The notes beneath the pieces are model-generated. The model saw only the letters and a program-made list of their open reading frames with translations, did no database searches and had not been told where the DNA came from. Position numbers and translations under genes: made by a program. 64,000 bases of DNA, taken from NCBI RefSeq assembly GCF_056746865.1, contig NZ_CM163382.1; one strand, written 5' to 3'. Shown here one piece after another: positions 7,956 to 57,304 of the stretch; position 1 is the stretch's first letter; the number at the start of each line of letters is the position of its first letter.

Positions 7956-8032
<77 letters not shown>

Positions 8033-8064
8033 TCACCGTACTGCTTTATTTCATCAAATTTGAT

Positions 8065-8141
<77 letters not shown>

Positions 8142-8174
8142 TCACCGTACTGCTTTACTTCATCAAATTTTAAT

Positions 8175-8251
<77 letters not shown>

Positions 8252-9645: not shown

Positions 9646-9742
9646 GCCGGATGCGGCGTGAACGCCTTATCCGGCCTACAAATCATGCAAATCCAAAATA
9701 TTGCAGGAGTTATGTAGGCCTGATAAGCGTAGCGCATCAGGC
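9646..9742. repeat. REP/BIME cluster (two REP palindromes)
   Basis: gccggatgcggcgtgaacgccttatccggcctaca and gtaggcctgataagcgtagcgcatcaggc, typical enterobacterial REP units. Confidence 0.6.
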
Positions 9743-10652: not shown

Positions 10653-11096
10653 TTAAACCTGCTTCGCCACAGCGATAATCGCCTCGCTTAACGCATTCAA
10701 CCCTTGGCTGCGTGAGGCGCTAAGCTGCGCACGCAATCCCAGCTCATCAAACAATGCCAGCGGCGACTGTGCCTGCAATTCGGCGGCGGTTTTCCCCTCA
10801 ACGGCAGTCAACAACACCGCCAGCAGGCCGCGCACAATGCGCCCTTCGCTGTCGCCAAAGAAGTGCATTTTACCGTTTTCAGCCACGGTATATCCCAGCC
10901 AGACGCGGTTTTCGCATCCGGCAATCTCTTTAGCCTGCGCTTTTAACTCGTCTGGCAAAGCCGGAAGCTGTTTCCCCAGCATGATCAACTGGCGATATTT
11001 ATCTTCCCATTGCGTCAACGGTGCGAAGGTATTGCGTAACGTTTCTGCGGTTACGGTTGTGCCGAACGGATGTCCGGCGAATTGCGGGTTCGTCAT
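10653..11096 (-). CDS. csdE: Sulfur acceptor protein CsdE (SufE-like)
   Basis: 147-aa ORF; start ATG shares 1 nt with the csdA stop. Confidence 0.9.
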
Positions 11097-12301
11097 TAAT
11101 CCACCAATAATTCCAGCGCGCGGTCAACGGCATTCACCAGCGCATCCACATCACTCTTTGTATTATATGGCGCAAAAGAGGCGCGCAGTGTGCCGGTTAC
11201 GCCTAATTCTGCCAGTAGCGGCTGAGCGCAATGTTGCCCGGCGCGCAGGGCAATACCGTACTCCGCCAGCAGCGTCACCATATCGCTGTGATGAACGCCA
11301 GCAAAATCAAAGGCCAGCAGGCTGGAATCCTGGCAGCGAAATGAGCGGAAGCCAGGACGTTTTGCCAGCGCATCTTCCGCCAGCGTTGCTAAGCTACGGC
11401 TCCAGCTTTCGGCCTGGTTGATATCGTAATCTGCCAGCCATTCCAGCGCCGCGCTTAATCCTATGACACCAGCGACATTTGGCGTTCCAGCTTCCAGTTT
11501 CCACGGCGCAGATTGAGTCGTGAAGCCGTCAAAACTCACTTCGTGAACCATTTTGCCGCCGCCCAGCCAGGGCGACATCGCTTCCAGCAGTTCTGATTTG
11601 CCATACAGCACGCCGATACCTGTCGGGCCATACAGTTTGTGACCTGAAAAAGCATAGAAATCAATATCCAGTTGCTGAACATCCGCGGGGAAATGCACTG
11701 CCCCCTGAGCACCATCAACCATCACCACCATCCCGGCTGAATGAGCAAAGGTAATCGCTCGCGCCAGATCCGGGCAACCGCCAGTGACGTTCGACATTTG
11801 TCCCAGAGCAAGAATTCGACTACGAGGTGTGATCAGTTCTGGCAACAAATCGACATCCGGCAGTCGCTGCGCATTAAGCGGCAATTTCACCACTTTGGCT
11901 CCAGTTTGTTGGGCGACCATCAGCCAGGGGACGAGGTTGGCGTGGTGTTCTGCCACGCTGGCAATAATCTCATCGCCCGGTTGCAGACGCGGACGCGCAT
12001 AGCATTGTGCCACCATGTTGATGGATTCAGTGGTGCCGCGCGTCCAGACGATAGTTTTATCATCCGGTGCATTCAGTAATTGCGCCACTTTCTCTCGTGC
12101 AGCTTCATAACGCGCGGTCAGGCATTGGGCTTCGGCAAACTGGCTGCGATGGACGTTTCCGGCGCTCAGGCTGTAAAACTGTCGAGTGGCTTCAACCACG
12201 GCTTCAGGTTTAAGCGCGGTCGCGGCGCTGTCGAGATAGACGCCCGCATCCTGTAGTGCGGGAAACTGGGCGCGAAACTGCGCGGGATTAAAAACGTTCA
12301 T
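11096..12301 (-). CDS. csdA: Cysteine sulfinate desulfinase / cysteine desulfurase CsdA (PLP-dependent)
   Basis: Track ORF 11096..12337; start taken at the ATG at 12301 ([12 protein letters not shown]); class V aminotransferase features. Confidence 0.9.
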
Positions 12302-12736: not shown

Positions 12737-12944
12737 AAAAAAAAAGCACCGCAATTAGGCGGTGCTACATTAATCACTATGGACAGACAGGGTAAATGTA
12801 CAGGAAGTGAAAAAAGGTAGCTTTGCTACCATGGTCTGAATCGCAGACCAATTGCAAACACAACAACACAACATCACAACCGTAAGCCAAAAGTTCACCA
12901 GAACACGCATTCCGATAAAACTTTTCGTTCCGGCTCAGGAAGTG
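12737..12944 (-). ncRNA. gcvB: GcvB small regulatory RNA
   Basis: Minus strand reads ACTTCCTGAGCCGGAACGAAAAGTTTTATCGGAATGCGTGTTCTGGTGAACTTTTGGCTTACGGTTGTGATGTTGTGTTGTTGTG... ending in hairpin GCACCGCCTAATTGCGGTGC plus T-run; GU-rich targeting region present; divergent from gcvA. Confidence 0.85.
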
Positions 12945-31163: not shown

Positions 31164-31530
31164 GTCGACAGGGAGTCAGACAACGAAGTGAACATCAGGA
31201 TGATGACACTTCTGAAGGACACACCAGGATGGTGTTTCAGGGAAAGGCTTCTGGATGAAGCGAAGAGGATGACGCAGGACGCGTTAAAGGACACCTCCAG
31301 GATGGAGAATGAGAACCGGTCAGGATGATTCGGTGGGTCAGGAAGGCCAGGGACACTTCAGGATGAAGTATCACATCGGGGTGGTGTGAGCAGGAAGCAA
31401 TAGTTCAGGATGAACGATTGGCCGCAAGGCCAGAGGAAAAGTTGTCAAGGATGAGCAGGGAGCAACAAAAGTAGCTGGAATGCTGCGAAACGAACCGGGA
31501 GCACTGTGAATACAGTGCTCCCTTTTTTTA
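31164..31530 (+). ncRNA. csrB: CsrB sRNA (CsrA-sequestering RNA)
   Basis: Begins GTCGACAGGGAGTCAGACAACGAAGTGAACATCAGGATGATG; many CAGGAUG/AGGA-type CsrA-binding motifs throughout; ends with a rho-independent terminator. Confidence 0.9.
31497..31529 (+). terminator. csrB rho-independent terminator
   Basis: gggagcactg-tgaata-cagtgctccc hairpin followed by TTTTTTT. Confidence 0.85.
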
Positions 31531-31574
31531 TTCCTGCTATTCTTCGCGGCAGTTTTTCTTATTGAGGTTGCTTT

Positions 31575-33162: not shown

Positions 33163-33228
33163 CGAGCGGTAAATGCCGTTTTAGCGGTGTAAATGCCGTT
33201 TTAGCGGTGTAAATGCCGTTTTAGCGGT
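33163..33228. repeat. Tandem direct repeat, 20-bp unit gtaaatgccgttttagcggt, 3 full copies plus a partial
   Basis: Exact copies at 33169-33188, 33189-33208 and 33209-33228, preceded by a partial agcggt. Confidence 0.85.
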
Positions 33229-33627
33229 GCTGAATCGAATCTTTTCAGGCAAATGCCAGTAAAAACTGCTTCATAGCGCGGATTTTTACTGGCGTTTGCC
33301 TGGAGTCAAGCGATCCATTTCATACTCTTCTTTATTTCTTCGTTTTAACCCTTCCTTTCTTGTTCTTGTTTTCATTTCCGTGAAGTGGATTCCACCGTCC
33401 AGGGCTAATGCCAAAATTGGGCCTCATTGAACGCATTAATGTTGTGTTGTTGCACGGTGAGCCGCTATGGCGCGCTTTTTATACTGCTATTGCCAGATAT
33501 AAACACGCGCCGTATTCGGCGAACGACCTATAAAAACGGCAAAAAACACCCTACGTCACCTCTGATTTCCTGGCGATGTCGCAGTCCAGAGTGAGCGTGG
33601 CTAACGCGAATTTTCAGGAGTGCAACA

Positions 33628-42075: not shown

Positions 42076-44310
42076 ATGGTTGCGGTAAGAAGTGCACATA
42101 TCAATAAGGCTGGTGAATTTGATCCGGAAAAATGGATCGCAAGTCTGGGTATTACCAGCCAGAAGTCGTGTGAGTGCTTAGCCGAAACCTGGGCGTATTG
42201 TCTGCAACAGACGCAGGGGCATCCGGATGCCAGTCTGTTATTGTGGCGTGGTGTTGAGATGGTGGAGATCCTCTCGACATTAAGTATGGACATTGACACG
42301 CTGCGGGCGGCGCTGCTGTTCCCTCTGGCGGATGCCAACGTAGTCAGCGAAGATGTGCTGCGTGAGAGCGTCGGTAAGTCGGTCGTTAACCTTATTCACG
42401 GCGTGCGTGATATGGCGGCGATCCGCCAGCTGAAAGCGACGCATACCGATTCTGTTTCCTCCGAGCAGGTCGATAACGTTCGCCGGATGTTATTGGCGAT
42501 GGTCGATGATTTTCGCTGCGTGGTCATCAAACTGGCAGAGCGTATTGCTCATCTGCGCGAAGTAAAAGACGCGCCGGAAGATGAACGCGTACTGGCGGCA
42601 AAAGAGTGCACCAATATCTACGCGCCGTTGGCGAACCGTCTTGGGATTGGACAACTGAAATGGGAGCTGGAAGATTACTGCTTCCGTTATCTCCACCCGA
42701 CCGAATACAAACGCATCGCAAAACTGCTGCATGAACGCCGTCTCGACCGCGAACACTATATCGAAGAGTTTGTCGGCCATCTGCGCGCTGAGATGAAAGC
42801 TGAAGGCGTTAAAGCTGAAGTGTATGGTCGACCGAAACACATCTACAGCATCTGGCGCAAAATGCAGAAAAAGAACCTCGCCTTCGATGAGCTGTTTGAT
42901 GTGCGTGCGGTACGTATTGTCGCCGAGCGTTTACAGGATTGTTATGCCGCACTGGGGATAGTGCACACTCACTATCGCCACCTGCCGGATGAGTTTGACG
43001 ATTACGTCGCTAACCCGAAACCAAACGGTTATCAGTCTATTCATACCGTGGTTCTGGGGCCGGGTGGAAAAACCGTTGAGATCCAAATCCGCACCAAACA
43101 GATGCATGAAGATGCAGAGTTGGGGGTTGCTGCGCACTGGAAATATAAAGAAGGCGCGGCAGCTGGCGGCGCACGTTCGGGACATGAAGACCGAATTGCC
43201 TGGCTGCGTAAACTGATTGCGTGGCAGGAAGAGATGGCTGATTCCGGCGAAATGCTCGACGAAGTACGCAGCCAGGTCTTTGACGACCGGGTGTACGTCT
43301 TTACGCCGAAAGGTGACGTCGTTGATTTGCCTGCGGGATCAACGCCGCTGGACTTCGCTTACCACATCCACAGTGATGTCGGGCACCGCTGCATCGGGGC
43401 AAAAATTGGCGGGCGCATTGTGCCGTTCACCTACCAGCTGCAGATGGGCGACCAGATTGAAATTATCACCCAGAAACAGCCGAACCCCAGCCGTGACTGG
43501 TTAAACCCAAACCTCGGTTACGTCACAACCAGCCGTGGGCGTTCGAAAATTCACGCCTGGTTCCGTAAACAGGACCGTGACAAAAACATTCTGGCTGGGC
43601 GGCAAATCCTTGACGACGAGCTGGAACATCTGGGGATCAGCCTGAAAGAAGCAGAAAAACATCTGCTGCCGCGTTACAACTTCAATGATGTCGACGAGTT
43701 GCTGGCGGCGATTGGTGGCGGGGATATCCGTCTCAATCAGATGGTGAACTTCCTGCAATCGCAATTTAATAAGCCGAGTGCCGAAGAGCAGGATGCCGCC
43801 GCGCTGAAGCAACTTCAGCAAAAAAGCTATACGCCGCAAAACCGCAGTAAAGATAACGGTCGTGTGGTGGTTGAAGGTGTCGGTAACCTGATGCACCACA
43901 TCGCGCGCTGCTGCCAGCCGATTCCTGGAGATGAGATTGTCGGCTTCATTACCCAGGGACGCGGTATTTCAGTACACCGCGCCGATTGCGAACAACTGGC
44001 GGAACTGCGCTCCCATGCGCCAGAACGTATTGTTGATGCGGTATGGGGCGAGAGCTACTCCGCCGGATATTCGCTGGTGGTCCGCGTGGTGGCTAATGAT
44101 CGTAGTGGGTTGTTACGTGATATCACGACCATTCTCGCCAACGAGAAGGTGAACGTACTTGGCGTTGCCAGCCGTAGCGACACCAAACAGCAACTGGCGA
44201 CCATCGACATGACCATTGAGATTTACAACCTGCAAGTGCTGGGCCGCGTGCTGGGTAAACTCAACCAGGTGCCGGATGTTATCGACGCGCGTCGGTTGCA
44301 CGGGAGTTAG
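42076..44310 (+). CDS. relA: GTP pyrophosphokinase, (p)ppGpp synthetase I
   Basis: 744-aa ORF ending ...VIDARRLHGS. Confidence 0.95.
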   Translation: MVAVRSAHINKAGEFDPEKWIASLGITSQKSCECLAETWAYCLQQTQGHPDASLLLWRGVEMVEILSTLSMDIDTLRAALLFPLADANVVSEDVLRESVGKSVVNLIHGVRDMAAIRQLKATHTDSVSSEQVDNVRRMLLAMVDDFRCVVIKLAERIAHLREVKDAPEDERVLAAKECTNIYAPLANRLGIGQLKWELEDYCFRYLHPTEYKRIAKLLHERRLDREHYIEEFVGHLRAEMKAEGVKAEVYGRPKHIYSIWRKMQKKNLAFDELFDVRAVRIVAERLQDCYAALGIVHTHYRHLPDEFDDYVANPKPNGYQSIHTVVLGPGGKTVEIQIRTKQMHEDAELGVAAHWKYKEGAAAGGARSGHEDRIAWLRKLIAWQEEMADSGEMLDEVRSQVFDDRVYVFTPKGDVVDLPAGSTPLDFAYHIHSDVGHRCIGAKIGGRIVPFTYQLQMGDQIEIITQKQPNPSRDWLNPNLGYVTTSRGRSKIHAWFRKQDRDKNILAGRQILDDELEHLGISLKEAEKHLLPRYNFNDVDELLAAIGGGDIRLNQMVNFLQSQFNKPSAEEQDAAALKQLQQKSYTPQNRSKDNGRVVVEGVGNLMHHIARCCQPIPGDEIVGFITQGRGISVHRADCEQLAELRSHAPERIVDAVWGESYSAGYSLVVRVVANDRSGLLRDITTILANEKVNVLGVASRSDTKQQLATIDMTIEIYNLQVLGRVLGKLNQVPDVIDARRLHGS

Positions 44311-44319
44311 TCTTACATA

Positions 44320-44347
44320 GCTGGATATGGCGTCAGCCGTATCCAGC
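44320..44347 (+). terminator. Hairpin downstream of relA
   Basis: gctggata ... tatccagc, 8-bp stem with 12-nt loop, followed by gatatctttt. Confidence 0.4.
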
Positions 44348-44405
44348 GATATCTTTTACTCGAAGGTATTACACCTGACAGACCCGCAATTTTCAGGACA
44401 TTCTA

Positions 44406-45197
44406 ATGAATCAAATCGACCGTTTGCTCACTATTATGCAGCGCCTGCGCGATCCGGAAAACGGCTGCCCGTGGGATAAAGAGCAGACATTTGCCACCAT
44501 TGCGCCTTACACCCTTGAAGAAACCTACGAGGTGCTGGACGCCATCGCCCGTGAAGATTTTGACGATCTTCGCGGTGAACTGGGCGATCTGCTGTTCCAG
44601 GTGGTGTTTTACGCACAAATGGCTCAGGAAGAAGGGCGCTTTGACTTTAATGATATATGCGCCGCGATCAGCGATAAATTAGAACGTCGCCATCCGCATG
44701 TTTTTGCTGACAGTTCTGCCGAAAATAGTAGTGAAGTGCTTGCCCGTTGGGAGCAAATCAAAACCGAAGAGCGCGCGCAGAAAGCGCAGCATTCGGCGCT
44801 GGACGATATTCCTCGTAGTTTACCGGCTTTAATGCGTGCGCAAAAAATCCAGAAACGTTGCGCCAACGTTGGTTTTGACTGGACGACGCTTGGTCCGGTA
44901 GTCGATAAAGTCTACGAAGAGATCGACGAGGTGATGTACGAGGCACGGCAGGCTGTTATCGACCAGGCTAAACTGGAGGAGGAAATGGGCGACCTGCTGT
45001 TTGCCACGGTCAATCTGGCTCGTCATTTAGGGACAAAAGCGGAAATCGCATTGCAAAAAGCGAACGAAAAATTCGAGCGTCGTTTTCGCGAAGTGGAGCG
45101 TATTGTTGCCGCGCGTGGACTGGAAATGACAGGTGTTGACCTCGAAACAATGGAAGAAGTCTGGCAACAGGTAAAACGGCAGGAAATTGATCTCTAA
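44406..45197 (+). CDS. mazG: Nucleoside triphosphate pyrophosphohydrolase MazG
   Basis: 263-aa ORF with tandem MazG domains; lies directly after relA with no mazE/mazF between. Confidence 0.9.
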   Translation: MNQIDRLLTIMQRLRDPENGCPWDKEQTFATIAPYTLEETYEVLDAIAREDFDDLRGELGDLLFQVVFYAQMAQEEGRFDFNDICAAISDKLERRHPHVFADSSAENSSEVLARWEQIKTEERAQKAQHSALDDIPRSLPALMRAQKIQKRCANVGFDWTTLGPVVDKVYEEIDEVMYEARQAVIDQAKLEEEMGDLLFATVNLARHLGTKAEIALQKANEKFERRFREVERIVAARGLEMTGVDLETMEEVWQQVKRQEIDL

Positions 45198-48498: not shown

Positions 48499-48506
48499 TG
48501 GTTGAG

Positions 48507-49424
48507 TTACCAGCGACCGGACGCGCCGCCACCGCCAGAAGAACCGCCCCCGCCGCTAAAGCCACCGCCTGAGCCTCCGCCACTTGAGCCGCCACCGGAA
48601 GAGGATGAAGAAGAACCTTTTCTTGAAGCTCTTTCTTTACCGAGCTTCTTGTATTTAGCGCGTAGCTTTTTATTAACGATAAGCCAAAAAATAAGCAGTG
48701 GTACGATGGCAAAAGGCGTGAGCATACCGCAGGCAACGATTAAATTGGTCCATGGTCCTGGCTCGGCAACATAGAGGAATACCATCCCGTAAATGGCGCC
48801 AGTGAGAGTGATCCAGGGTAAATTCGACGGATCGGTAAAAACAATAAAATATGAAAGTACCGCCAGCAATATAATTACAGCAAGCGATAATGGAATAAAG
48901 GGATTGATACTGTAATAATCCCCCCTGTCTTCCGATAATTCACCATTCAACAGAAGCGCGCCGATATTTTCGCTTGCCAGTGTTAATCCACCCATCAGGT
49001 CATCACTTTTGAAGGCAGGGATCAAAATATCTCTGATAATCTTCGCCGCTTGCAGGTCGGTAACCACCCCTTCCAGCCCGTAGCCAACCTCAATACGAAC
49101 AGCATGCTCCTCCCAGGCAACCAGAAGTAAAATACCATCGTTTCTCTGCTTATCTCCCAGTTTCCAGCTATCAAAAACGCGTGCTGCATATTGTTCAATG
49201 GAATCGTCTCCGGTGGACGGCACTACTAATACAGCGACCTGCGCCCGTGTTTTATGTGTAATATCCTGCAGCTGCTGCGTTAGCGATTGCTGTTCAGACG
49301 TGCTTAACGTACCAGTAATATCAGTCACTTGTTGGCGCAGCTCCGGCACAGCAATTTGCTGGGCAAGCCCGGGAAGGCTCCACAAAGCAAGTAGAATAAA
49401 GATTAAGCGCATTACGATCACCAA
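48507..49424 (-). CDS. TPM-domain (TLP18.3/Psb32/MOLO-1 family) membrane protein, paralog 1; ends in a Gly/Ser tail ...GGGGSSGGGGASGRW. Track start at 49424 is a TTG; the first ATG at 49412 (MRLIFILLALWSLPGLA) is the likelier start
   Basis: 305-aa track ORF: signal peptide, TPM domain, hydrophobic segments, low-complexity tail; adjacent to eno, the position of ygcG in K-12 as I recall it. Confidence 0.85.
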   Translation of the reverse strand: MVIVMRLIFILLALWSLPGLAQQIAVPELRQQVTDITGTLSTSEQQSLTQQLQDITHKTRAQVAVLVVPSTGDDSIEQYAARVFDSWKLGDKQRNDGILLLVAWEEHAVRIEVGYGLEGVVTDLQAAKIIRDILIPAFKSDDLMGGLTLASENIGALLLNGELSEDRGDYYSINPFIPLSLAVIILLAVLSYFIVFTDPSNLPWITLTGAIYGMVFLYVAEPGPWTNLIVACGMLTPFAIVPLLIFWLIVNKKLRAKYKKLGKERASRKGSSSSSSGGGSSGGGSGGGFSGGGGSSGGGGASGRW

Positions 49425-50566
49425 CGGCCGGATGAACCGCCGCCTCCTGAAGAACCGCCACCACCGCGGAAAGAATTTCTCGACGAAGAGCGAGAATGAG
49501 CATTACGATTCCCCGTTTTCCTGTTGCTTTTTTCTCCTGATCCCAGCTTAAGATTGCCAGTAAATTTGGCCACAATGATCAGCAGAACGATGCCAGCAAT
49601 GGTTATTGGGCCGATAAAATGATCAATTAACCCAATAATTGTTGAGATGAATGCAATATCTTTATTACTGGCGAACACCAGGCACCATCCCACAATAATT
49701 ATCAGCATCACGACAAACAATGAATTTCGTCCTGATTCACGAACCTGCGGAGTCTTCTTTTGTTTTTTCACTTTAGCGTTTTTATTTTTTGGGGTCAGCA
49801 TCATAGGAAATACGCGGCACATATTAAAAACTACCGCGAGACGCTGCTTGCAGGTTGTTGCTAACAATAAACTAAAACAAACGACCGATACCCGCCGAAT
49901 GATGACATCGTCCTGAAAGGAGAAAAACCAGACCATAGGGGTAATCATCGATATCATCCATATGCCACGCCCTGGGCGGCTGGCAAATCGCCAGAGGACA
50001 ACGATGGCAACGATCATCAGCAGTGTCCAGGCAAGACAAGGCAGCGAACGTTGCGGATTAGCAAACAGATGATTGGCTAAAGCATCCAAAGGGCTAAGGT
50101 TCGCTTTGATATGGGTAAACTGTGCGATGCTTTCAATTCCGCCCGTTAATCCAGCAAAGAGATTGTTTTTTTCGAATTCTGGCTGCATATGGTAACGAAC
50201 AATTTGCGAAGCTTGTTCCGGCGGCAACATCTGTTCCAGTCCATGTCCAATCTTCATTGACGCCAGCCCTTCCGGCCATACGACGAGAATTAAGATACCT
50301 TCGCCATATCGCTTCTCTCCAACGGGTTTCCAGTGATATACCCCGTATCTCTGCGAGGCTGCAAGTTTAATGTTTTTGCCCCCTGTGGTCGGCGTGACCA
50401 ACACGGCCACCTGGAAGTGGTTTTGCTGCTCGAGAGTCTGTAATTGTTGAGTTAAAGCAGTTTGTTCTTCTGTCGTTAATGTCCCGGTTAAGTCAGTTAC
50501 TGAAGGCAATTGTTCAGCGAATACCTGAAAACCGCATAGCATCAGAAGTAAGAGAAAAATACGCAT
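49418..50566 (-). CDS. TPM-domain-like membrane protein, paralog 2 (divergent, longer membrane region); ends ...GGGGSSGGGGSSGRW
   Basis: 382-aa ORF: signal peptide MRIFLLLLMLCGFQVFA, several hydrophobic segments, Lys-rich linker, Gly/Ser tail; stop lies 5 nt before the paralog 1 ATG. Confidence 0.8.
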   Translation of the reverse strand: MRIFLLLLMLCGFQVFAEQLPSVTDLTGTLTTEEQTALTQQLQTLEQQNHFQVAVLVTPTTGGKNIKLAASQRYGVYHWKPVGEKRYGEGILILVVWPEGLASMKIGHGLEQMLPPEQASQIVRYHMQPEFEKNNLFAGLTGGIESIAQFTHIKANLSPLDALANHLFANPQRSLPCLAWTLLMIVAIVVLWRFASRPGRGIWMISMITPMVWFFSFQDDVIIRRVSVVCFSLLLATTCKQRLAVVFNMCRVFPMMLTPKNKNAKVKKQKKTPQVRESGRNSLFVVMLIIIVGWCLVFASNKDIAFISTIIGLIDHFIGPITIAGIVLLIIVAKFTGNLKLGSGEKSNRKTGNRNAHSRSSSRNSFRGGGGSSGGGGSSGRW

Positions 50567-50580
50567 ATCAATTCCTTTTG

Positions 50581-51474
50581 TTACCAGCGCCCGGAAGCGC
50601 CACCGCCACCAGATGAACCGCCACCACCGCTGAAATTGTCATTGTTGAATGAAGAGGATGACGATGATGAATAGTGGGAGGAAGAATTGCTTCTTGTATG
50701 GCGTGATGGCTGGTTGGCATCACGCATCGAATCCCGAACCTTTTTGCCGAAGGGGGTAAAAGCGATGGCGACAGCCAGGAACGGTGTGGCGAAGCAGAGT
50801 AATGTTGCGAGTACTCCCCAGCTTCCGCTGAAGCCTGCTATAGGTAAAACAAAGGCCAGTACAATAGCTGCGAAGCAAATTACTCCCAGCGTTTTGATAT
50901 ATCCTCTGGCAGAAATAAACGTCAGTACTATCGCCCAGACTAACAAAGCCCACCAACCGCTAAAAGGCAAAGGGTGATCGGTCGGTGTTATCGTTGCTAA
51001 ATTATTCCCCGTCAGACGACTTTCAATATCGCTGATTCCCTTTTGCAAACCACCAGCCAGGTCCCCTTTTTTAAATGCCGGAATAATACTGTTGCGAATA
51101 ATTTTCCCGGACTGTGCATCCGTAATAATACCTTCCAGTCCGTAACCGATTTCAATACGCACGGTATGATCCTGCCAGGCGACTAACAGTAGAACGCCAT
51201 CATCGTGGTCTTTATCACCCGGTTTCCAGCTATCGAATACCCGCGTTGCGTACTGCTCGATGGTTTCATCGCCAGTTGTTTCAACCACTAACACGACCAA
51301 CTGTGCGTAGTTTTTTTGCGTCAGGGCTTTAATCTGGTTGGTCAGGGTGTTTACTTCGCTGTTTGTTAATGTGCCGGTTAAGTCATTCACATACTTGGGT
51401 GATTCAGGTACTGGAATTTGTGTGGCAAACACAGATGAACAGAAGAAAGCCATAAGGAAGATAAAATTTCGCAT
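50581..51474 (-). CDS. TPM-domain membrane protein, paralog 3; ends ...GGGGSSGGGGASGRW
   Basis: Track ORF 50581..51504; start taken at the ATG at 51474 (MRNFIFLMAFFCSSVFA), 13 nt after the LemA stop with a GGGGAAG Shine-Dalgarno-like sequence. Confidence 0.8.
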   Translation of the reverse strand: MRNFIFLMAFFCSSVFATQIPVPESPKYVNDLTGTLTNSEVNTLTNQIKALTQKNYAQLVVLVVETTGDETIEQYATRVFDSWKPGDKDHDDGVLLLVAWQDHTVRIEIGYGLEGIITDAQSGKIIRNSIIPAFKKGDLAGGLQKGISDIESRLTGNNLATITPTDHPLPFSGWWALLVWAIVLTFISARGYIKTLGVICFAAIVLAFVLPIAGFSGSWGVLATLLCFATPFLAVAIAFTPFGKKVRDSMRDANQPSRHTRSNSSSHYSSSSSSSFNNDNFSGGGGSSGGGGASGRW

Positions 51475-52262: not shown

Positions 52263-52934
52263 ATGCAGTACCCGATTAACGAGATGTTCCAGACCCTGCA
52301 AGGTGAGGGTTACTTTACCGGCGTCCCCGCCATTTTTATTCGTTTACAGGGATGCCCGGTTGGCTGTGCCTGGTGCGACACCAAACACACCTGGGAAAAG
52401 CTTGAGGATCGGGAAGTCTCCCTTTTCAGCATTCTGGCGAAGACCAAAGAGAGTGATAAGTGGGGGGCGGCGAGCAGTGAAGACTTGCTGGCTGTCATTG
52501 GTCGCCAGGGATACACCGCGCGGCATGTGGTGATTACGGGTGGTGAGCCTTGCATTCATGATTTGCTGCCACTGACTGACCTGCTCGAAAAGAACGGTTT
52601 TAGCTGCCAGATCGAAACCAGTGGTACTCATGAGGTACGCTGCACACCGAATACCTGGGTTACCGTATCGCCAAAGCTGAACATGCGCGGCGGCTATGAA
52701 GTGTTGTCACAGGCACTGGAGCGAGCCAACGAAATCAAGCATCCAGTGGGACGCGTACGTGATATTGAAGCACTGGATGAACTTTTGGCGACGCTGACCG
52801 ATGATAAACCGCGAGTCATTGCACTGCAGCCGATTAGCCAAAAGGATGATGCCACACGATTGTGCATTGAAACCTGCATTGCTCGTAATTGGCGTTTGTC
52901 GATGCAAACACATAAATATCTAAATATTGCCTGA
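52263..52934 (+). CDS. queE: 7-carboxy-7-deazaguanine synthase (radical SAM)
   Basis: 223-aa ORF with Cys motif CPVGCAWCDT. Confidence 0.9.
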   Translation: MQYPINEMFQTLQGEGYFTGVPAIFIRLQGCPVGCAWCDTKHTWEKLEDREVSLFSILAKTKESDKWGAASSEDLLAVIGRQGYTARHVVITGGEPCIHDLLPLTDLLEKNGFSCQIETSGTHEVRCTPNTWVTVSPKLNMRGGYEVLSQALERANEIKHPVGRVRDIEALDELLATLTDDKPRVIALQPISQKDDATRLCIETCIARNWRLSMQTHKYLNIA

Positions 52935-53159
52935 TTAAACATTTATAAGCGTTATAAATGGGTGGAACCTGTAAAGATTTCTACTCATTTATATTGTTTG
53001 TCGCCTCTGAAAACTCCTCCATTTTACCCATCCAGGGCTAATCATTAGCATTCTCTACAAATTCTGCGGCATTAATTTTTCGCTGGAGTGAAAATTATTG
53101 CGGTAAAGTTTGGTAGATTTTAGTCGGTATAGGATTACTTTAAATATTTAGCTTTTCAA

Positions 53160-53273
53160 TCAATGGATTAAGTGCTCTTTAACATAATGGATGTGTTGTT
53201 TGTGTGATACTATAAAGTTGGTAGATTGTGACTGACTTAAAAAATCAATAATTAATAATAGGTTATGTTTAGT
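53160..53273 (+). promoter_or_regulatory. AT-rich CRISPR leader
   Basis: AT-rich tract immediately upstream of the first repeat, on the side opposite the degenerate terminal repeat. Confidence 0.5.
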
Positions 53274-53851
53274 GAGTTCCCCGCGCCAGCGGGGATAAAC
53301 CGTCTGGGCCGGATTCGATCCCGCGCGTACCGGAGAGTTCCCCGCGCCAGCGGGGATAAACCGTACAATCCCGCATCGAAACTGAATACCCCGATGAGTT
53401 CCCCGCGCCAGCGGGGATAAACCGTTGCCCAGGCTTTTGCGAAAATTTGTGATTTGGAGTTCCCCGCGCCAGCGGGGATAAACCGACACGGGGCAGATTG
53501 AGCAGGACTGCGACCTCGAGTTCCCCGCGCCAGCGGGGATAAACCGGCAGCAGATTTACAAACAGATCGGAGATTACTGAGTTCCCCGCGCCAGCGGGGA
53601 TAAACCGCGCGGCCTGCGCTCGCGTAAAATCAGTTGCAGGAGTTCCCCGCGCCAGCGGGGATAAACCGTCCGCGCAAGCCTATATAAACCAGATTGATCA
53701 GAGTTCCCCGCGCCAGCGGGGATAAACCGCGAAATCGCACGCGCTTCCCGCATGGGGGAAAGAGTTCCCCGCGCCAGCGGGGATAAACCGTGTAAAAGTC
53801 TTGGTTTTGGCGCATCATTTGTGAGTTCCCCGCGCCAGCGGGGATAAACCA
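53274..53851 (+). CRISPR. Type I-E CRISPR array: 10 repeats of 29 bp (GAGTTCCCCGCGCCAGCGGGGATAAACCG) and 9 spacers of 32 bp; the last repeat is degenerate at its 3' end
   Basis: Exact 61-bp periodicity; repeats start at 53274, 53335, 53396, 53457, 53518, 53579, 53640, 53701, 53762, 53823; no cas genes in the window. Confidence 0.95.
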
Positions 53852-54379
53852 CCATATAACCCGTTATCTCTTTCTCAAGTTTTTATATTAGCAGTACTCG
53901 TATTAAGCAATATATCCACGTAACACCTCATGTTCAAAATAGCTCTCCATATATGAGAAGTTCACAATTATCGATACAAAAAATCAAATTTAATTAAAGT
54001 GTTAGTTGTATGATACTTAAATCATTAAGAAATTATCATATATTATTTTTTTAATATTGAATTGATGTTTGTTAATTTTTTCTTTAGGATAGTAGTTTGT
54101 TTTTTAAGCTTATTATTCATTGATTAAGTAATAAATCTGGAAATTTGTCTTTGTTTTGAGGCTAATGAGTGGTTTTACATAATCGCCTCTATACGCTGTT
54201 GATGAATAGTTCTTATGAATAAAGATATCCAGTTCATACTTTAAGTGAAAATTGATAAAGTGCGATTCGTATTGTCTTTTATTCTAAATAGACTGGCCCC
54301 CTGAATCTCCAGACAACCAATATCACTTAAATAAGTGATAGTCTTAATACTAGTTTTTAGACTAGTCATTGGAGAGCAG

Positions 54380-54745
54380 ATGATTGATGTCTTAGGACCG
54401 GAGAAACGCAGACGGCGTACTACACAGGAAAAGATCGCTATTGTTCAGCAGAGTTTTGAACCGGGAATGACGGTCTCCCTTGTTGCCCGGCAACACGGTG
54501 TGGCAGCCAGCCAGTTATTTCTCTGGCGCAAGCAATACCAGGAGGGAAGTCTTACTGCTGTGGCCGCAGGAGAGCAGGTCGTTCCTGCCTCTGAACTTGC
54601 TGCTGCCATGAAGCAGATTAAAGAACTCCAGCGCCTGCTCGGCAAAAAAACGATGGAAAATGAACTCCTTAAAGAAGCCGTTGAATACGGGCGTGCAAAA
54701 AAGTGGATAGCGCACGCGCCCTTATTGCCCGGGGATGGGGAGTAA
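54380..54745 (+). CDS. insC: IS2 transposase OrfA (InsC), helix-turn-helix
   Basis: Track ORF 54335..54745; start taken at [13 protein letters not shown] (121 aa). Confidence 0.9.
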
Positions 54746-55608
54746 GCTTAGTCAGCCGTTGTCTCCGGGTGTCGCGTGCGCAGTTGCACGTCATTCTCAG
54801 ACGAACCGATGACTGGAAAGATGGTCGCCGCAGCCGTCACTCAGATGATACGGATGTGCTTCTCCGTATACACCATGTTATCGGAGAGCTGCCCACGTAT
54901 GGTTATCGTCGGGTATGGGCGCTGCTTCGCAGACAGGCCGAACTTGATGGTATGCCTGCGATCAATGCCAAACGTGTTTACCGGATCATGCGCCAGAATG
55001 CGCTGTTGCTTGAGCGAAAAACCGCTGTACCGCCATCGAAACGGGCACATACTGGCAAAGTGGCCGTGAAAGAAAGCAATCAACGATGGTGCTCTGACGG
55101 GTTCGAGTTCCGCTGTGATAACGGAGAAAAACTGCGAGTCACGTTCGCGCTGGACTGCTGTGACCGTGAGGCACTGCACTGGGCAGTCACTACGGGCGGC
55201 TTCGACAGTGAAACAGTACAGGACGTAATGCTGGGAGCGGTGGAACGCCGCTTCGGCAACGAGCTTCCGGCGTCTCCAGTAGAGTGGCTGACGGATAATG
55301 GTTCATGCTACCGGGCTAATGAAACACGGCAGTTTGCCCGGATGTTGGGGCTTGAACCGAAGAACACGGCGGTGCGGAGTCCGGAGAGTAACGGCATAGC
55401 AGAGAGCTTCGTGAAAACGATAAAGCGTGACTACATCAGTATCATGCCTAAACCAGACGGGTTAACGGCAGCAAAGAACCTTGCAGAGGCGTTCGAGCAT
55501 TATAACGAATGGCATCCGCATAGTGCACTGGGTTATCGCTCGCCACGGGAATATCTACGGCAGCGGGCCAGTAATGGGTTAAGTGATAACAGGTGTCTGG
55601 AAATATAG
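54703..55608 (+). CDS. insD: IS2 transposase OrfB (InsD), DDE catalytic domain; overlaps OrfA in the -1 frame (programmed frameshift arrangement)
   Basis: 301-aa ORF recognised as IS2 InsD. Confidence 0.9.
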
Positions 55609-55641
55609 GGGCAAATCCACTAAAGACATCGAGTGTAGTTA

Positions 55642-55780
55642 ATATTCCTTGTAAAAACAGGGATAAACCGAACTAGTTAAAGTTTTTATTATGTTCCCTG
55701 CATCAGCGGGGATAAACCGGACTTGTTATCATTTTTTAAGTTGTCGAACTTATGTTCCCCGCGTCAGCGGGGATAACCAT
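55642..55780 (+). CRISPR. Degenerate CRISPR array remnant (about 3 diverged type I-E repeats, 2 spacers)
   Basis: atattccttgtaaaaacagggataaaccg, atgttccctgcatcagcggggataaaccg and atgttccccgcgtcagcggggataaccat, in the same orientation as the main array. Confidence 0.6.
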
Positions 55781-55825
55781 TCAGGTACGTTCATGCCGGG
55801 CAGTTTCCCGCCCGGCCTTCCTCAC

Positions 55826-57304
55826 TTACGCATTCGACCAGCTCTGGATCGAATCCGCATTCCCCAATTCCCCATGCATCACTTCATACGATTTTTTCAG
55901 GATTACATCAGTATGTTTGGTTAACTCCTTGAAAATGCCTTTATTCATCGCGTCGTAGCGTTTGGCATTGTTCTCAACAGGCATAAAGATATCTTTCACG
56001 CGAACCATTTTGTCGACAGCCGTTGCGTAATCCGGGTATAGCCCCAGACCTACCGCCGTATTGATCGCTGCCCCCAGACTTGCACAACCATTAATGGCGT
56101 TACGGCGTGCCGGAAGGTTGAACACGTCGGCAAAAATCTGCATAAACAGATCGCTGTTCGAACCGCCGCCAGTAATGATCACATGTTTGGCAAAGTGATT
56201 CATTTCATTACACATATTGTCGTAATTGTTCTTCAGCGTCAGCGCCACGCTTTCCAGTATCGAACGATATATCCATGCGTAATCCATGCTGGAATCAAAG
56301 CCGATCATAATCCCGCGTTTGTACGGTTCCCACGGATTGGTCAGCCAGTCCAGCACCGTCATCAGACCATTACAGCCAGGCGGCACACAAGACGCTTTCT
56401 TGTTGAGTAAATCTTCCGGTGAAAGATCCTGTGCTTTGGCATCCTGAATTAACGACTCGCCTAACATGTCGCGCAGCCAGCTCACTGTCCACATGCCTTT
56501 GCGGATACCGTAACCTTCATACAGCAATGTTTGCGGAATAGAAGACATAATTGGCCAGTACGCCACCGGATCTTTCGGCAGTGCTTTGCCGTTCATCATC
56601 AATGCGATGTAAGTGCCAAGAGAAATTACCGCAGTTTCATTATCCAGTAATCCGGCCCCCAGAGCTTCTACCGGTTTATCACTGGTGGTACAAACAACCG
56701 GCAGTCCTGCCGGGAAATGTGTCGCCAGTGCGGCTTGTGGTGTGATATGTCCGAGGACGGTGCCAGGCATTTGCACATCAAAAAGCATATGACGGGGGAT
56801 ATTAAACTTCTCCATGACTGCGGCATCTTCACTCCATGCCCAGGTCTTATAATCCACCGGCCACTGACCAAAATAGTTGGCGATATTGTCTTTAAACTCG
56901 CCGGTTAAGCGATGCGTCAGATAACCTGAAAAAGAGGTGACATATGCCACGTCAGGATTCGTATGTTCGTAAGGGCGTGTAACGCGTGCATCCTGCCAGC
57001 TAATCAACGGCGCAGCTGGCGTGCCATCGGCTTTCAATAACGCACGGCAGCAACGGATGGATCCCAGACCAATACCGACAATATCTTCTTTATTCCCGGC
57101 AAACTGACTCATCAAATCGTGACCGGCAAAACATAATGATGCCCATAAATCGTCGTCAGGATGTTCTGCGGTATCGGCATCTGGCGTGTGCATCGGCTGC
57201 AATAAGCCTTTGCCTTCGCAAACCACATTACCTTCCAGATCATACATCACCACTTTTGTGCTCTGACTTCCGCCATCAATCCCTATGATGTATTTTTTCG
57301 ACAT
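55826..57304 (-). CDS. ygcE: FGGY-family carbohydrate kinase, substrate unknown
   Basis: 492-aa ORF with FGGY kinase N- and C-terminal domains. Confidence 0.9.
   Translation of the reverse strand: MSKKYIIGIDGGSQSTKVVMYDLEGNVVCEGKGLLQPMHTPDADTAEHPDDDLWASLCFAGHDLMSQFAGNKEDIVGIGLGSIRCCRALLKADGTPAAPLISWQDARVTRPYEHTNPDVAYVTSFSGYLTHRLTGEFKDNIANYFGQWPVDYKTWAWSEDAAVMEKFNIPRHMLFDVQMPGTVLGHITPQAALATHFPAGLPVVCTTSDKPVEALGAGLLDNETAVISLGTYIALMMNGKALPKDPVAYWPIMSSIPQTLLYEGYGIRKGMWTVSWLRDMLGESLIQDAKAQDLSPEDLLNKKASCVPPGCNGLMTVLDWLTNPWEPYKRGIMIGFDSSMDYAWIYRSILESVALTLKNNYDNMCNEMNHFAKHVIITGGGSNSDLFMQIFADVFNLPARRNAINGCASLGAAINTAVGLGLYPDYATAVDKMVRVKDIFMPVENNAKRYDAMNKGIFKELTKHTDVILKKSYEVMHGELGNADSIQSWSNA

Follow-up and report, generated by a model that had tools for sequence, protein, structure and literature searches.

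CRISPR2.2 of Escherichia coli: a conserved three-repeat mini-array at the ygcE end of the CRISPR-II locus, with a recent IS2 insertion beside it

The nomenclature under which one of the arrays of Escherichia coli is called CRISPR2.2 reportedly goes back to Diez-Villasenor et al. in 2010. The CRISPR-II locus sits between ygcE and ygcF (queE), and CRISPR2.2 has been described there (PMC4489801, PMC3903273, PMC3737337) as three type-2 (I-E) repeats with "two invariable spacers," located about 0.5 kb from CRISPR2.3. Some strains have one fused array, CRISPR2.2-3. Leaders have been assigned only next to CRISPR2.1 and CRISPR2.3, and sporadic insertion sequences at the CRISPR-II locus are mentioned in the literature. 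The name "CRISPR2.2" has also been applied to another array (PMC4524480), and a literature search under the "CRISPR2b" nomenclature gave no match.

Elements of other kinds resemble CRISPR2.2 in part. Anchor, or trailer, repeats, exemplified by the iap-proximal degenerate repeat and fixed spacer of CRISPR2.1 (PMC3903273), are the oldest and leader-distal repeats of an array, are degenerate at their 3' end and are near-universal whatever the cas variant. The crRNA-like mini-arrays, such as CreA of the CreTA system, CreR and the I-E cas3-cas8e element, have two or three degenerate repeats in which hairpin and handle are intact, enclose fixed and conserved spacers, and lie in or next to the cas operon. 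The mini-array located between cas3 and casA has been predicted to act as a crRNA-like repressor of Pcas (Shmakov et al., PMC10120712).

The window analyzed here, a stretch of 64 kb (64,000 nt of contig NZ_CM163382.1, RefSeq assembly GCF_056746865.1), contains a CRISPR-II locus bordered by queE and ygcE (Table 1). An earlier note, made from the sequence alone, had claimed that three degenerate type I-E repeats lie beside ygcE at 55642-55780, oriented like the main array and with irregular spacers of 20-22 and 32 bp, and had described them as a decaying second array whose leader region contains IS2. The repeats are indeed present, all three on the + strand, as is the main array, and about 1.8 kb beyond it, and their spacers measure 20 and 32 nt; PGAP annotates only the main array and skips the mini-array. 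Alignment to other E. coli genomes leads to CRISPR2.2, a locus that the earlier note had named for comparison: K-12 is identical to the window from S1 through R3 and over the whole block (100% in MG1655), and its CRISPR2.2 differs from the mini-array neither in sequence nor in position. Based on the location between queE and ygcE, the three repeats, the 0.45-kb separator and the match to K-12, we are confident that the mini-array is CRISPR2.2, fixed and frozen at the ygcE (trailer) end of the CRISPR-II locus, and that the IS2 beside it was acquired recently by a strain close to 118UI. CRISPR2.2 is already known, and the finding is thus a correct rediscovery.

Table 1. Features of the CRISPR-II locus in the 64-kb window.
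Feature	Position	Strand	Remarks
queE (ygcF)	52263-52934	+	Left border of the CRISPR-II locus; open reading frame, annotated queE at the matching position of K-12 and 118UI
Leader 2.3 of the active array	52935-53273	+	339 nt, AT-rich, between the queE stop and the first repeat
CRISPR2.3 main array	53274-53851	+	10 repeats, 9 spacers, 61-nt period
AT-rich separator between CRISPR2.3 and CRISPR2.2	53852-54288 and 55625-55641		454 nt in total without IS2, 27% G+C
Conserved zone 5' of R1	54203-54288, resuming at 55625-55641		Low per-20-nt diversity
Target-site duplication CTAAA, left copy	54284-54288		
IS2, intact	54289-55619	+	1331 bp
Target-site duplication CTAAA, right copy	55620-55624		
R1 ATATTCCTTGTAAAAACAGGGATAAACCG	55642-55670	+	Most degenerate repeat, 18/29 to the consensus
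S1 AACTAGTTAAAGTTTTTATT	55671-55690	+	20-nt spacer
R2 ATGTTCCCTGCATCAGCGGGGATAAACCG	55691-55719	+	24/29 to the consensus
S2 GACTTGTTATCATTTTTTAAGTTGTCGAACTT	55720-55751	+	32-nt spacer
R3 ATGTTCCCCGCGTCAGCGGGGATAACCAT	55752-55780	+	Terminal (trailer) repeat, 23/29; 3' end degenerate
G+C-rich inverted repeat GCCGGGCAGTTTCCCGCCCGGC	55795-55816		Directly past the ygcE stop; read from the sequence
ygcE, FGGY-family carbohydrate kinase	55826-57304	-	Right border; open reading frame and annotation

In its position, its repeats, its two fixed spacers and its distance to CRISPR2.3, the mini-array agrees with the published CRISPR2.2; the window strain differs from the published descriptions in having an IS2 in the separator, a configuration found in none of 5426 complete E. 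coli genomes. When the insertion sequence and one copy of the duplication were removed, the resulting IS-free locus was 100% identical in 118UI and was recovered with at least 80% coverage in 4122 of the 5426 genomes. In addition, queE of the window is 100% identical to that of 118UI, as are all nine spacers of CRISPR2.3, which PGAP labels "CRISPR" in that strain. As expected of a type I-E array, at least two direct repeats on one strand match the 29-nt consensus, and cas genes, which fall outside the window, lie in 118UI about 20 kb beyond ygcE as a type I-E operon, cas3-casABCDE-cas1(pseudogene)-cas2. About three in four complete E. coli genomes carry CRISPR2.2, which matters little as a catalogued feature; its wider interest lies in a signature of strong constraint on a supposedly dead array, which is described below.

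Ungapped matches to the consensus repeat of the main array, GAGTTCCCCGCGCCAGCGGGGATAAACCG (10 copies), were scored on both strands of the 64 kb, and a repeat-family search found R1-R3 independently. The best match outside the arrays on either strand reached 19/29, so that R2 (24/29) and R3 (23/29) are both far above chance. R1 by itself is within the background, 10 sites of the window scoring at least 18/29; a better-than-background alignment to the type I-E repeat was thus obtained for R2 and R3 and not for R1 taken alone. Placed in its context, R1 is nevertheless credible, since only about 0.008 sites of its quality are expected on the same strand in the 100 nt 5' of R2, since its 3' 11-mer, GGGATAAACCG, which includes the 8-nt crRNA 5' handle, is exact, since it shares the hairpin of the other repeats, and since published descriptions count it as the third repeat of CRISPR2.2. 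The start-to-start distances are 49 nt for R1-R2 and 61 nt for R2-R3, the latter being the regular I-E period. The score of R1 alone would be compatible with a chance resemblance of elements that are not CRISPR-derived, but the scores of R2 and R3, the 61-nt period, the shared hairpin and the orthology to the terminal repeats of true Escherichia arrays (see below) already refute this explanation, to which we attach practically no probability.

R1, R2 and R3 all fold as the canonical repeat does, into a 7-bp stem closed by a 4-nt loop, with energies of -7.9, -12.1 and -15.1 kcal/mol, respectively, R3 forming a perfect hairpin. The structure is of the Cas6e type, and recognition by this enzyme is predicted. 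In R1, the stem is kept through two double (compensatory) changes from C-G to U-A, plus one G-U; 98.6% of the stem-pair cells are standard, with two compensatory pairs, and the T9-to-A change found in R2 of one lineage breaks a stem pair. The 8-nt 5' handle AUAAACCG is kept in R1 and in R2, and severe degeneration is confined to the opening bases of R1 and the closing bases of R3, which are precisely the ends that, judging from the layout, would not be needed for any crRNA. An Rfam search of positions 52900-56000 in E-value mode yielded chance matches only and no CRISPR-repeat family, and a search of the whole window at gathering thresholds reported only CsrB, GcvB, three tRNAs and ES036, with nothing at the mini-array.

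The earlier note was right to place IS2 in the DNA immediately 5' of the mini-array. The element is flanked at both ends by the 5-bp duplication CTAAA and has imperfect terminal inverted repeats; its open reading frames at 54335-54745 and 54703-55608 score 275.8 bits against the NCBIfam model of IS2 TnpA (cut-off, 229) and 707.8 bits against that of IS2 TnpB (cut-off, 597). Its length of 1331 bp, the 5-bp duplication, the two overlapping transposase open reading frames and the imperfect inverted repeats all match IS2 of the IS3 family, and no difference was noted: this is an ordinary copy at a new site. The sequence is at least 99% identical to IS copies of thousands of genomes, and in 118UI the empty site contains CTAAA once, seen as a 5-nt overlap of two alignments. 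Both sides of the element are 100.000% identical to 118UI over 11.3 kb, including the nine CRISPR2.3 spacers, and this identity, together with the intact ends and duplication and with the absence of the insertion from all 5426 complete genomes, shows that IS2 arrived very recently and is private to the strain. The allele is therefore new but ordinary, and is a private strain marker.

The diversity of the locus was assessed on an alignment of 14 loci sampled evenly along the similarity rankings, and was compared both with the deep lineage E69 and without it. The diversities were computed from the 11 to 12 strains with an intact ygcE, whereas the segregating sites of the noncoding segments come from a 13-strain set, the smaller set giving identical counts (Table 2). 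Diversity in the R1-R3 block is 4 to 8 times below that of the separator, of the flank and of the four-fold sites of ygcE. Block and separator differ with a p value of 0.002 in Fisher's test, and of 1e-10 once E69 is added; from the flanks, 16.2 segregating sites would be expected in the block under a Poisson model, against 4 observed (p = 0.0003). Of the 84 bases of the block that align with E69, 2 differ, as against 48 of 163 four-fold sites of ygcE (29%; p = 1e-10). The functional leader 2.3, with a diversity of 0.040 overall and of 0.023 in its last 100 nt, also lies above the block. The spacers S1 and S2 are as invariant as the repeats in the aligned strains that have them.

Table 2. Nucleotide diversity and segregating sites across the locus.
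Segment	Diversity without E69	Diversity with E69	Segregating sites (without E69)
R1-R3 block, 139 nt	0.012	0.015	4/139
Separator	0.045	0.077	51/452
R3-to-ygcE-stop segment, 62 nt	0.068	0.082	9/62
ygcE four-fold sites	0.094	0.130	42/162
ygcE codon positions 1 and 2	0.0076	0.0095	16/730

A sliding profile delimits a quiet zone that runs from about 100 nt 5' of R1 to R3, next to a hypervariable center of the separator: per-20-nt diversity is 0.000-0.019 in the conserved zone 5' of R1 versus 0.02-0.19 in the middle of the separator. The block and the 100 nt preceding it thus evolve about as slowly as codon positions 1 and 2 of ygcE, while the DNA on both sides is near the synonymous rate. The same picture emerges at the scale of the population, where the figures are identities to one allele and are not tree-aware: the block was detected in 4158 of the 5426 complete E. 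coli genomes, 3869 of which carry it with at most one mismatch, and a 156-nt query spanning it found at least 99% identity in the same number of genomes (3869/4158), versus 144 genomes for a query of equal length from the center of the separator, for which 1029 genomes showed 80-90% identity. CRISPR2.2 is therefore frozen and not decaying, since it evolves much more slowly than the nearby noncoding DNA and synonymous sites. Comparison of the aligned sequences suggests that the decay of R1 and the shortening of S1 predate the diversification of E. coli and that both have remained nearly constant since then. This pattern points to purifying selection, as read from diversity, on an array that was supposed to be dead.

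These results bear directly on the proposal that the mini-array is a second array in its own right, equipped with a leader that IS2 has disrupted, and that it is now decaying neutrally. Such a history would account for repeats that match the consensus at only 18-24 of 29 positions, for the one short spacer, for the AT-rich DNA in the position of a leader, the last 100 nt or so of which are conserved, and for an IS2 located 22 nt from R1. However, the description as decaying, which we owe to the earlier note, did not survive the comparison of genomes: the 139-nt block is among the most conserved noncoding DNA of the locus and does not drift, and its spacers never vary. Moreover, IS2, being private and recent, cannot explain an ancient degeneracy.

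The leader assigned to the mini-array by the earlier note is not supported either. Searches with nhmmer in both directions revealed no significant similarity (E values of 5 or higher) of the separator to leader 2.3 or to the leader 2.1 of K-12, and no IHF consensus occurs within 120 nt of R1, the sole match in the locus falling in leader 2.3; hence an AT-rich leader with an IHF site and a relationship to known leaders, as in type I-E arrays, was not found. A Smith-Waterman alignment of leader 2.3 with the separator gave a weak likeness, equaled by 3 of 300 mononucleotide shuffles, which would favor the independent array but was not confirmed by nhmmer, and the idea that the separator is a copy of a leader was dropped on account of these E values. 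An origin of the separator as mobile DNA was likewise discarded, with no phage match and with matches in the plasmid set that turned out to be three mislabelled chromosomes. No credible open reading frame exists in the separator: a 31-codon frame across R1 (GTG start at 54245) lacks a Shine-Dalgarno sequence and shows in E69 seven amino acid changes versus one silent change, and frames of 77 and 68 amino acids, opened by the ATG of R2 and of R3, extend into the variable flank antisense to ygcE. Weak promoter-like matches are present in the separator. The last 100 nt or so before R1 are conserved and may thus contain some upstream signal.

The variants that we observed also argue against an array with a life of its own. 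None of the sampled genomes contains extra spacers in the mini-array, every full-length match having the span of the query, and the strain-to-strain spacer variation typical of type I-E arrays is absent, the spacers being invariant. A strain with a functional array at CRISPR2.2, the existence of which the earlier note had left open, was not seen among the sampled genomes, in which variants consist of unit deletions or of a fusion with CRISPR2.3 and nothing else. Deletion of a 61-nt unit fused R2 and R3 in RMDEC332 and in strain 141, a 61-nt deletion is also found in O145 strains, and E69 has a split form reduced to R1-S2-R3 by a 49-nt deletion; in strains N53 and 22KM0354, where the array is single or reduced to a lone repeat, the last repeat is an R3 hybrid. 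The mini-array thus takes up no spacers, and strains differ only by the loss of whole units. Deletions between repeats are evidently frequent, and single arrays are easily recreated by them.

Further insight into the origin of the mini-array came from the ygcE loci fetched from other species. Escherichia albertii has one array, composed of leader 2.3, two ordinary units and a terminal repeat ending in GGGGATAACCATTTAGG, with the same ygcE flank as R3. Escherichia whittamii has a single repeat with the same 3' junction as R3, and Escherichia sp. MOD1-EC7003, a member of a cryptic clade, has a truncated copy of this junction. The 3' junction of R3, GGGGATAACCATT(C/T)AG followed by the flank, is thus common to E. 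albertii, E. whittamii, MOD1-EC7003 and the single-array E. coli strains, whereas Citrobacter, Enterobacter and other genera have ygcE with no repeats beside it. The presence of the junction in other Escherichia identifies R3 as the trailer repeat with which the queE-side array ended ancestrally in this genus, so that this part at least of the mini-array is not independent. Taken together with the invariance of the block and the lack of support for a leader, this makes the independent, decaying array an improbable explanation.

R3 is therefore a trailer repeat, across Escherichia species, of the same kind as the anchor repeats of CRISPR2.1. Unlike the latter, the units of CRISPR2.2 do not adjoin the active array: in most E. 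coli, R1-S1-R2-S2-R3 and the spacer-acquiring CRISPR2.3 have between them the 454-nt AT-rich separator, the DNA of which is unrelated. The internally degenerate R1 and a 20-nt spacer are further differences. Adaptation may have been lost because no functional leader adjoins the mini-array, and its persistence may be due to the fact that divergent repeats seldom recombine with canonical ones, according to the "anchor" idea of Almendros et al., as well as to some function that would constrain its sequence.

One such function could be exerted in cis by a structural element: its three stable hairpins would either terminate or insulate transcription where the CRISPR2.3 and ygcE units converge, or offer a binding site to a protein. 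The block lies between these convergent units and beside the inverted repeat GCCGGGCAGTTTCCCGCCCGGC, which is likely, judging from its sequence, to be a terminator hairpin common to both; the region folds very stably on both strands (z scores of -5.6 and -6.5), conservation of the block reaches into 100 nt of nonrepeat DNA upstream, and the ygcE-ygcF intergenic region has been reported to bind RNA polymerase as a "promoter island" and to contain a predicted sRNA. Nevertheless, no T-run terminator was called on either strand in or after the mini-array (the scan also missed GCCGGGCAGTTTCCCGCCCGGC, which forms a stem in the folds of both strands), the nonstructural spacers are as invariant as the stems, and the actual ygcE terminator and its flank are variable. 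We consider that such a cis-acting role is improbable.

The explanation that we favor extends to the transcripts of the mini-array. Transcription could come from read-through of CRISPR2.3 or from a start inside the separator, and the most likely activity, should the mini-array be transcribed, is that Cas6e would release a canonical crRNA with the 32-nt spacer S2 and a short crRNA with the 20-nt spacer S1, a proposal that is based on the retention of all parts required for two crRNAs, namely the hairpin kept in all three repeats and the 8-nt 5' handle of R1 and R2. According to PMC5159557, processing and assembly into a smaller Cascade still take place with spacers of 20 nt, and interference requires more than 20 nt. 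A further, tentative suggestion is that CRISPR2.2 and the 100 nt or so 5' of it form a domesticated mini-array under selection, which would provide a canonical and a 20-nt guide for nonimmune uses of Cascade, e.g., binding without cleavage, although we regard this as rather unlikely.

A related and more specific explanation is that CRISPR2.2 is a domesticated regulatory mini-array, the crRNA-like guides of which would direct Cascade to repress partially matching chromosomal sites in the manner of CreA and CreR. The strong constraint, which includes the spacers, the fact that degeneration has left precisely the crRNA handles and the hairpin base untouched, and the assembly of 20-nt spacers into Cascade are all in line with this possibility, as is the occurrence of the same design in the repeat of the K-12 cas3-casA intergenic mini-array, ACCTTCCCTACTTAAGTAGGGATAAACCG, the one predicted to repress Pcas: its 3' 11-mer and the base of its stem are intact and its upper stem co-varies, such that R1 parallels it closely in the positions kept. 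Like the described mini-arrays, CRISPR2.2 has degenerate repeats around fixed spacers that are conserved in relatives. In contrast to them, it does not lie in or beside a cas operon or a regulated gene, the cas genes being 20 kb or more away, and its spacers have no partial PAM-flanked target in the DNA scanned. Indeed, full-length and seed-plus-PAM scans of S1 and S2 over the window and the cas regions of K-12 and 118UI (about 150 kb, including both cas promoters) remained at chance level, with no seed-plus-PAM or extended partial match above shuffled spacers. BLAST searches of the two spacers against phages and plasmids returned chance matches or the mini-array locus itself. In IMG/VR, the S2 pattern gave two chance matches without a PAM in addition to the E. 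coli locus itself, and the S1 pattern, which is too AT-rich to be informative, gave at least 120 matches. Finally, BL21 and other strains devoid of cas genes keep CRISPR2.2, which weakens any explanation of the constraint that depends on Cascade. For these reasons we see repression of this kind as a possibility, albeit an unlikely one. Separately, S1 was considered as a diverged duplicate of S2, and this was rejected: the 12/20 match has a p value of 0.02 in a fixed register but of 0.24 over all registers.

The recent insertion gives the frozen CRISPR2.2 of this strain a particular setting. With IS2 in place, most of the conserved upstream zone no longer adjoins the mini-array. The transposase genes point towards the mini-array, and the right end of the element is 22 nt 5' of R1, so that IS2 may feed read-through transcription into the repeats. 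If CRISPR2.2 is a domesticated guide unit, then the IS2 allele would represent a natural knock-out or rewiring of the mini-array. The point at which IS2 inserted is a small hairpin, GTCTTTTATTCTAAAGAC.

The IS2 upstream of CRISPR2.2, the type I-E mini-array beside ygcE, has its target in a small inverted repeat (see the table), whose loop and 3' arm make up that target. The inverted repeat falls within the conserved zone upstream of the first CRISPR2.2 repeat, R1.

Another degenerate mini-array lies in K-12 BW25113, where a first repeat, ACCTTCCCTACTTAAGTAGGGATAAACCG, is followed by a 31-nt spacer and a second repeat, TCATTCCCGAAGTTATTTGGGATTTGCAG. The 3' 11-mer survives in the first of these, and only the hairpin in the second; R1 and R3 of CRISPR2.2 have degenerated by the same logic. 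The BW25113 mini-array probably corresponds to that of Shmakov et al. 2023. No counterpart was seen in the casA-cas3 gap of 118UI, the closest relative strain, where that gap is far shorter. In 118UI, cas1e is annotated as a pseudogene with an internal stop (8098-9021 of L099, its cas-region record), and therefore spacer acquisition may have been lost altogether in this lineage. A Hok/Gef toxin gene lies between cas3 and cysH of the same strain (L099 16564-16716).

Some strains carry sugar-utilization genes next to ygcE in place of the whole CRISPR-II locus and the queE side, as in CCUG 73778 (1-2500 of its record, L005); these include genes for an aminoimidazole riboside kinase and a carbohydrate porin, and the common sequence is limited to the last 80 nt before ygcE. 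Klebsiella spallanzanii has a large I-E-type array of at least 22 repeats about 3.2 kb downstream of its ygcE homolog (10730-12040 of its record, L035), with repeats that match the E. coli consensus at 27-28 of 29 positions; the remaining ygcE-bearing non-Escherichia genera showed no repeats near ygcE. Among the database records, the "viral" contig IMGVR_UViG_2531839665_000019 contains the chromosomal E. coli CRISPR2.2 locus (L103 11797-11868), and the PLSDB "plasmids" NZ_CP141089.1, NZ_CP134663.1, and NZ_OL790696.1 (4.8-4.9 Mb) are chromosomes; all four look like database contamination.

Features located in the window and in comparison records
Feature	Record	Coordinates	Strand	Remarks
tRNA-Met(CAT), three in tandem	window	7956-8251	minus	metZWV-type cluster; 109-110-nt period
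ES036 (CssrF)	window	9679-9721		known sRNA gene; Rfam gathering score
GcvB	window	12738-12943		known sRNA gene; Rfam gathering score
CsrB	window	31173-31532		known sRNA gene; Rfam gathering score
relA	window	42076-44310
mazG	window	44406-45197
Inverted repeat GTCTTT-TATTCT-AAAGAC	window	54273-54288 + 55620-55627		uninterrupted at L002 2934-2951
Degenerate mini-array	L098	1417-1505		K-12 BW25113, cas3-casA intergenic region

At the metZWV-type cluster, the 118UI annotation gives a single tRNA-Met, whereas the window has three; either the copy number differs or that annotation is incomplete. Only 95 nt separate relA from mazG (44311-44405): the mazEF toxin-antitoxin pair, which K-12 carries there, is missing in this lineage, and the 118UI annotation concurs. 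Three adjoining genes share a Gly-rich coding repeat of 55 nt that resembles GGCGGTGGCGGTTCTTCTGG on the coding strand (48506-48560, 49417-49471, and 50580-50634); they are annotated in 118UI as encoding TPM-domain proteins beside a LemA-family gene. In K-12, ygcG and yqcG are the only genes here. In the gudP-yqcA intergenic region (33169-33229), the 20-nt unit GTAAATGCCGTTTTAGCGGTG occurs three times in tandem, the copies being perfect.
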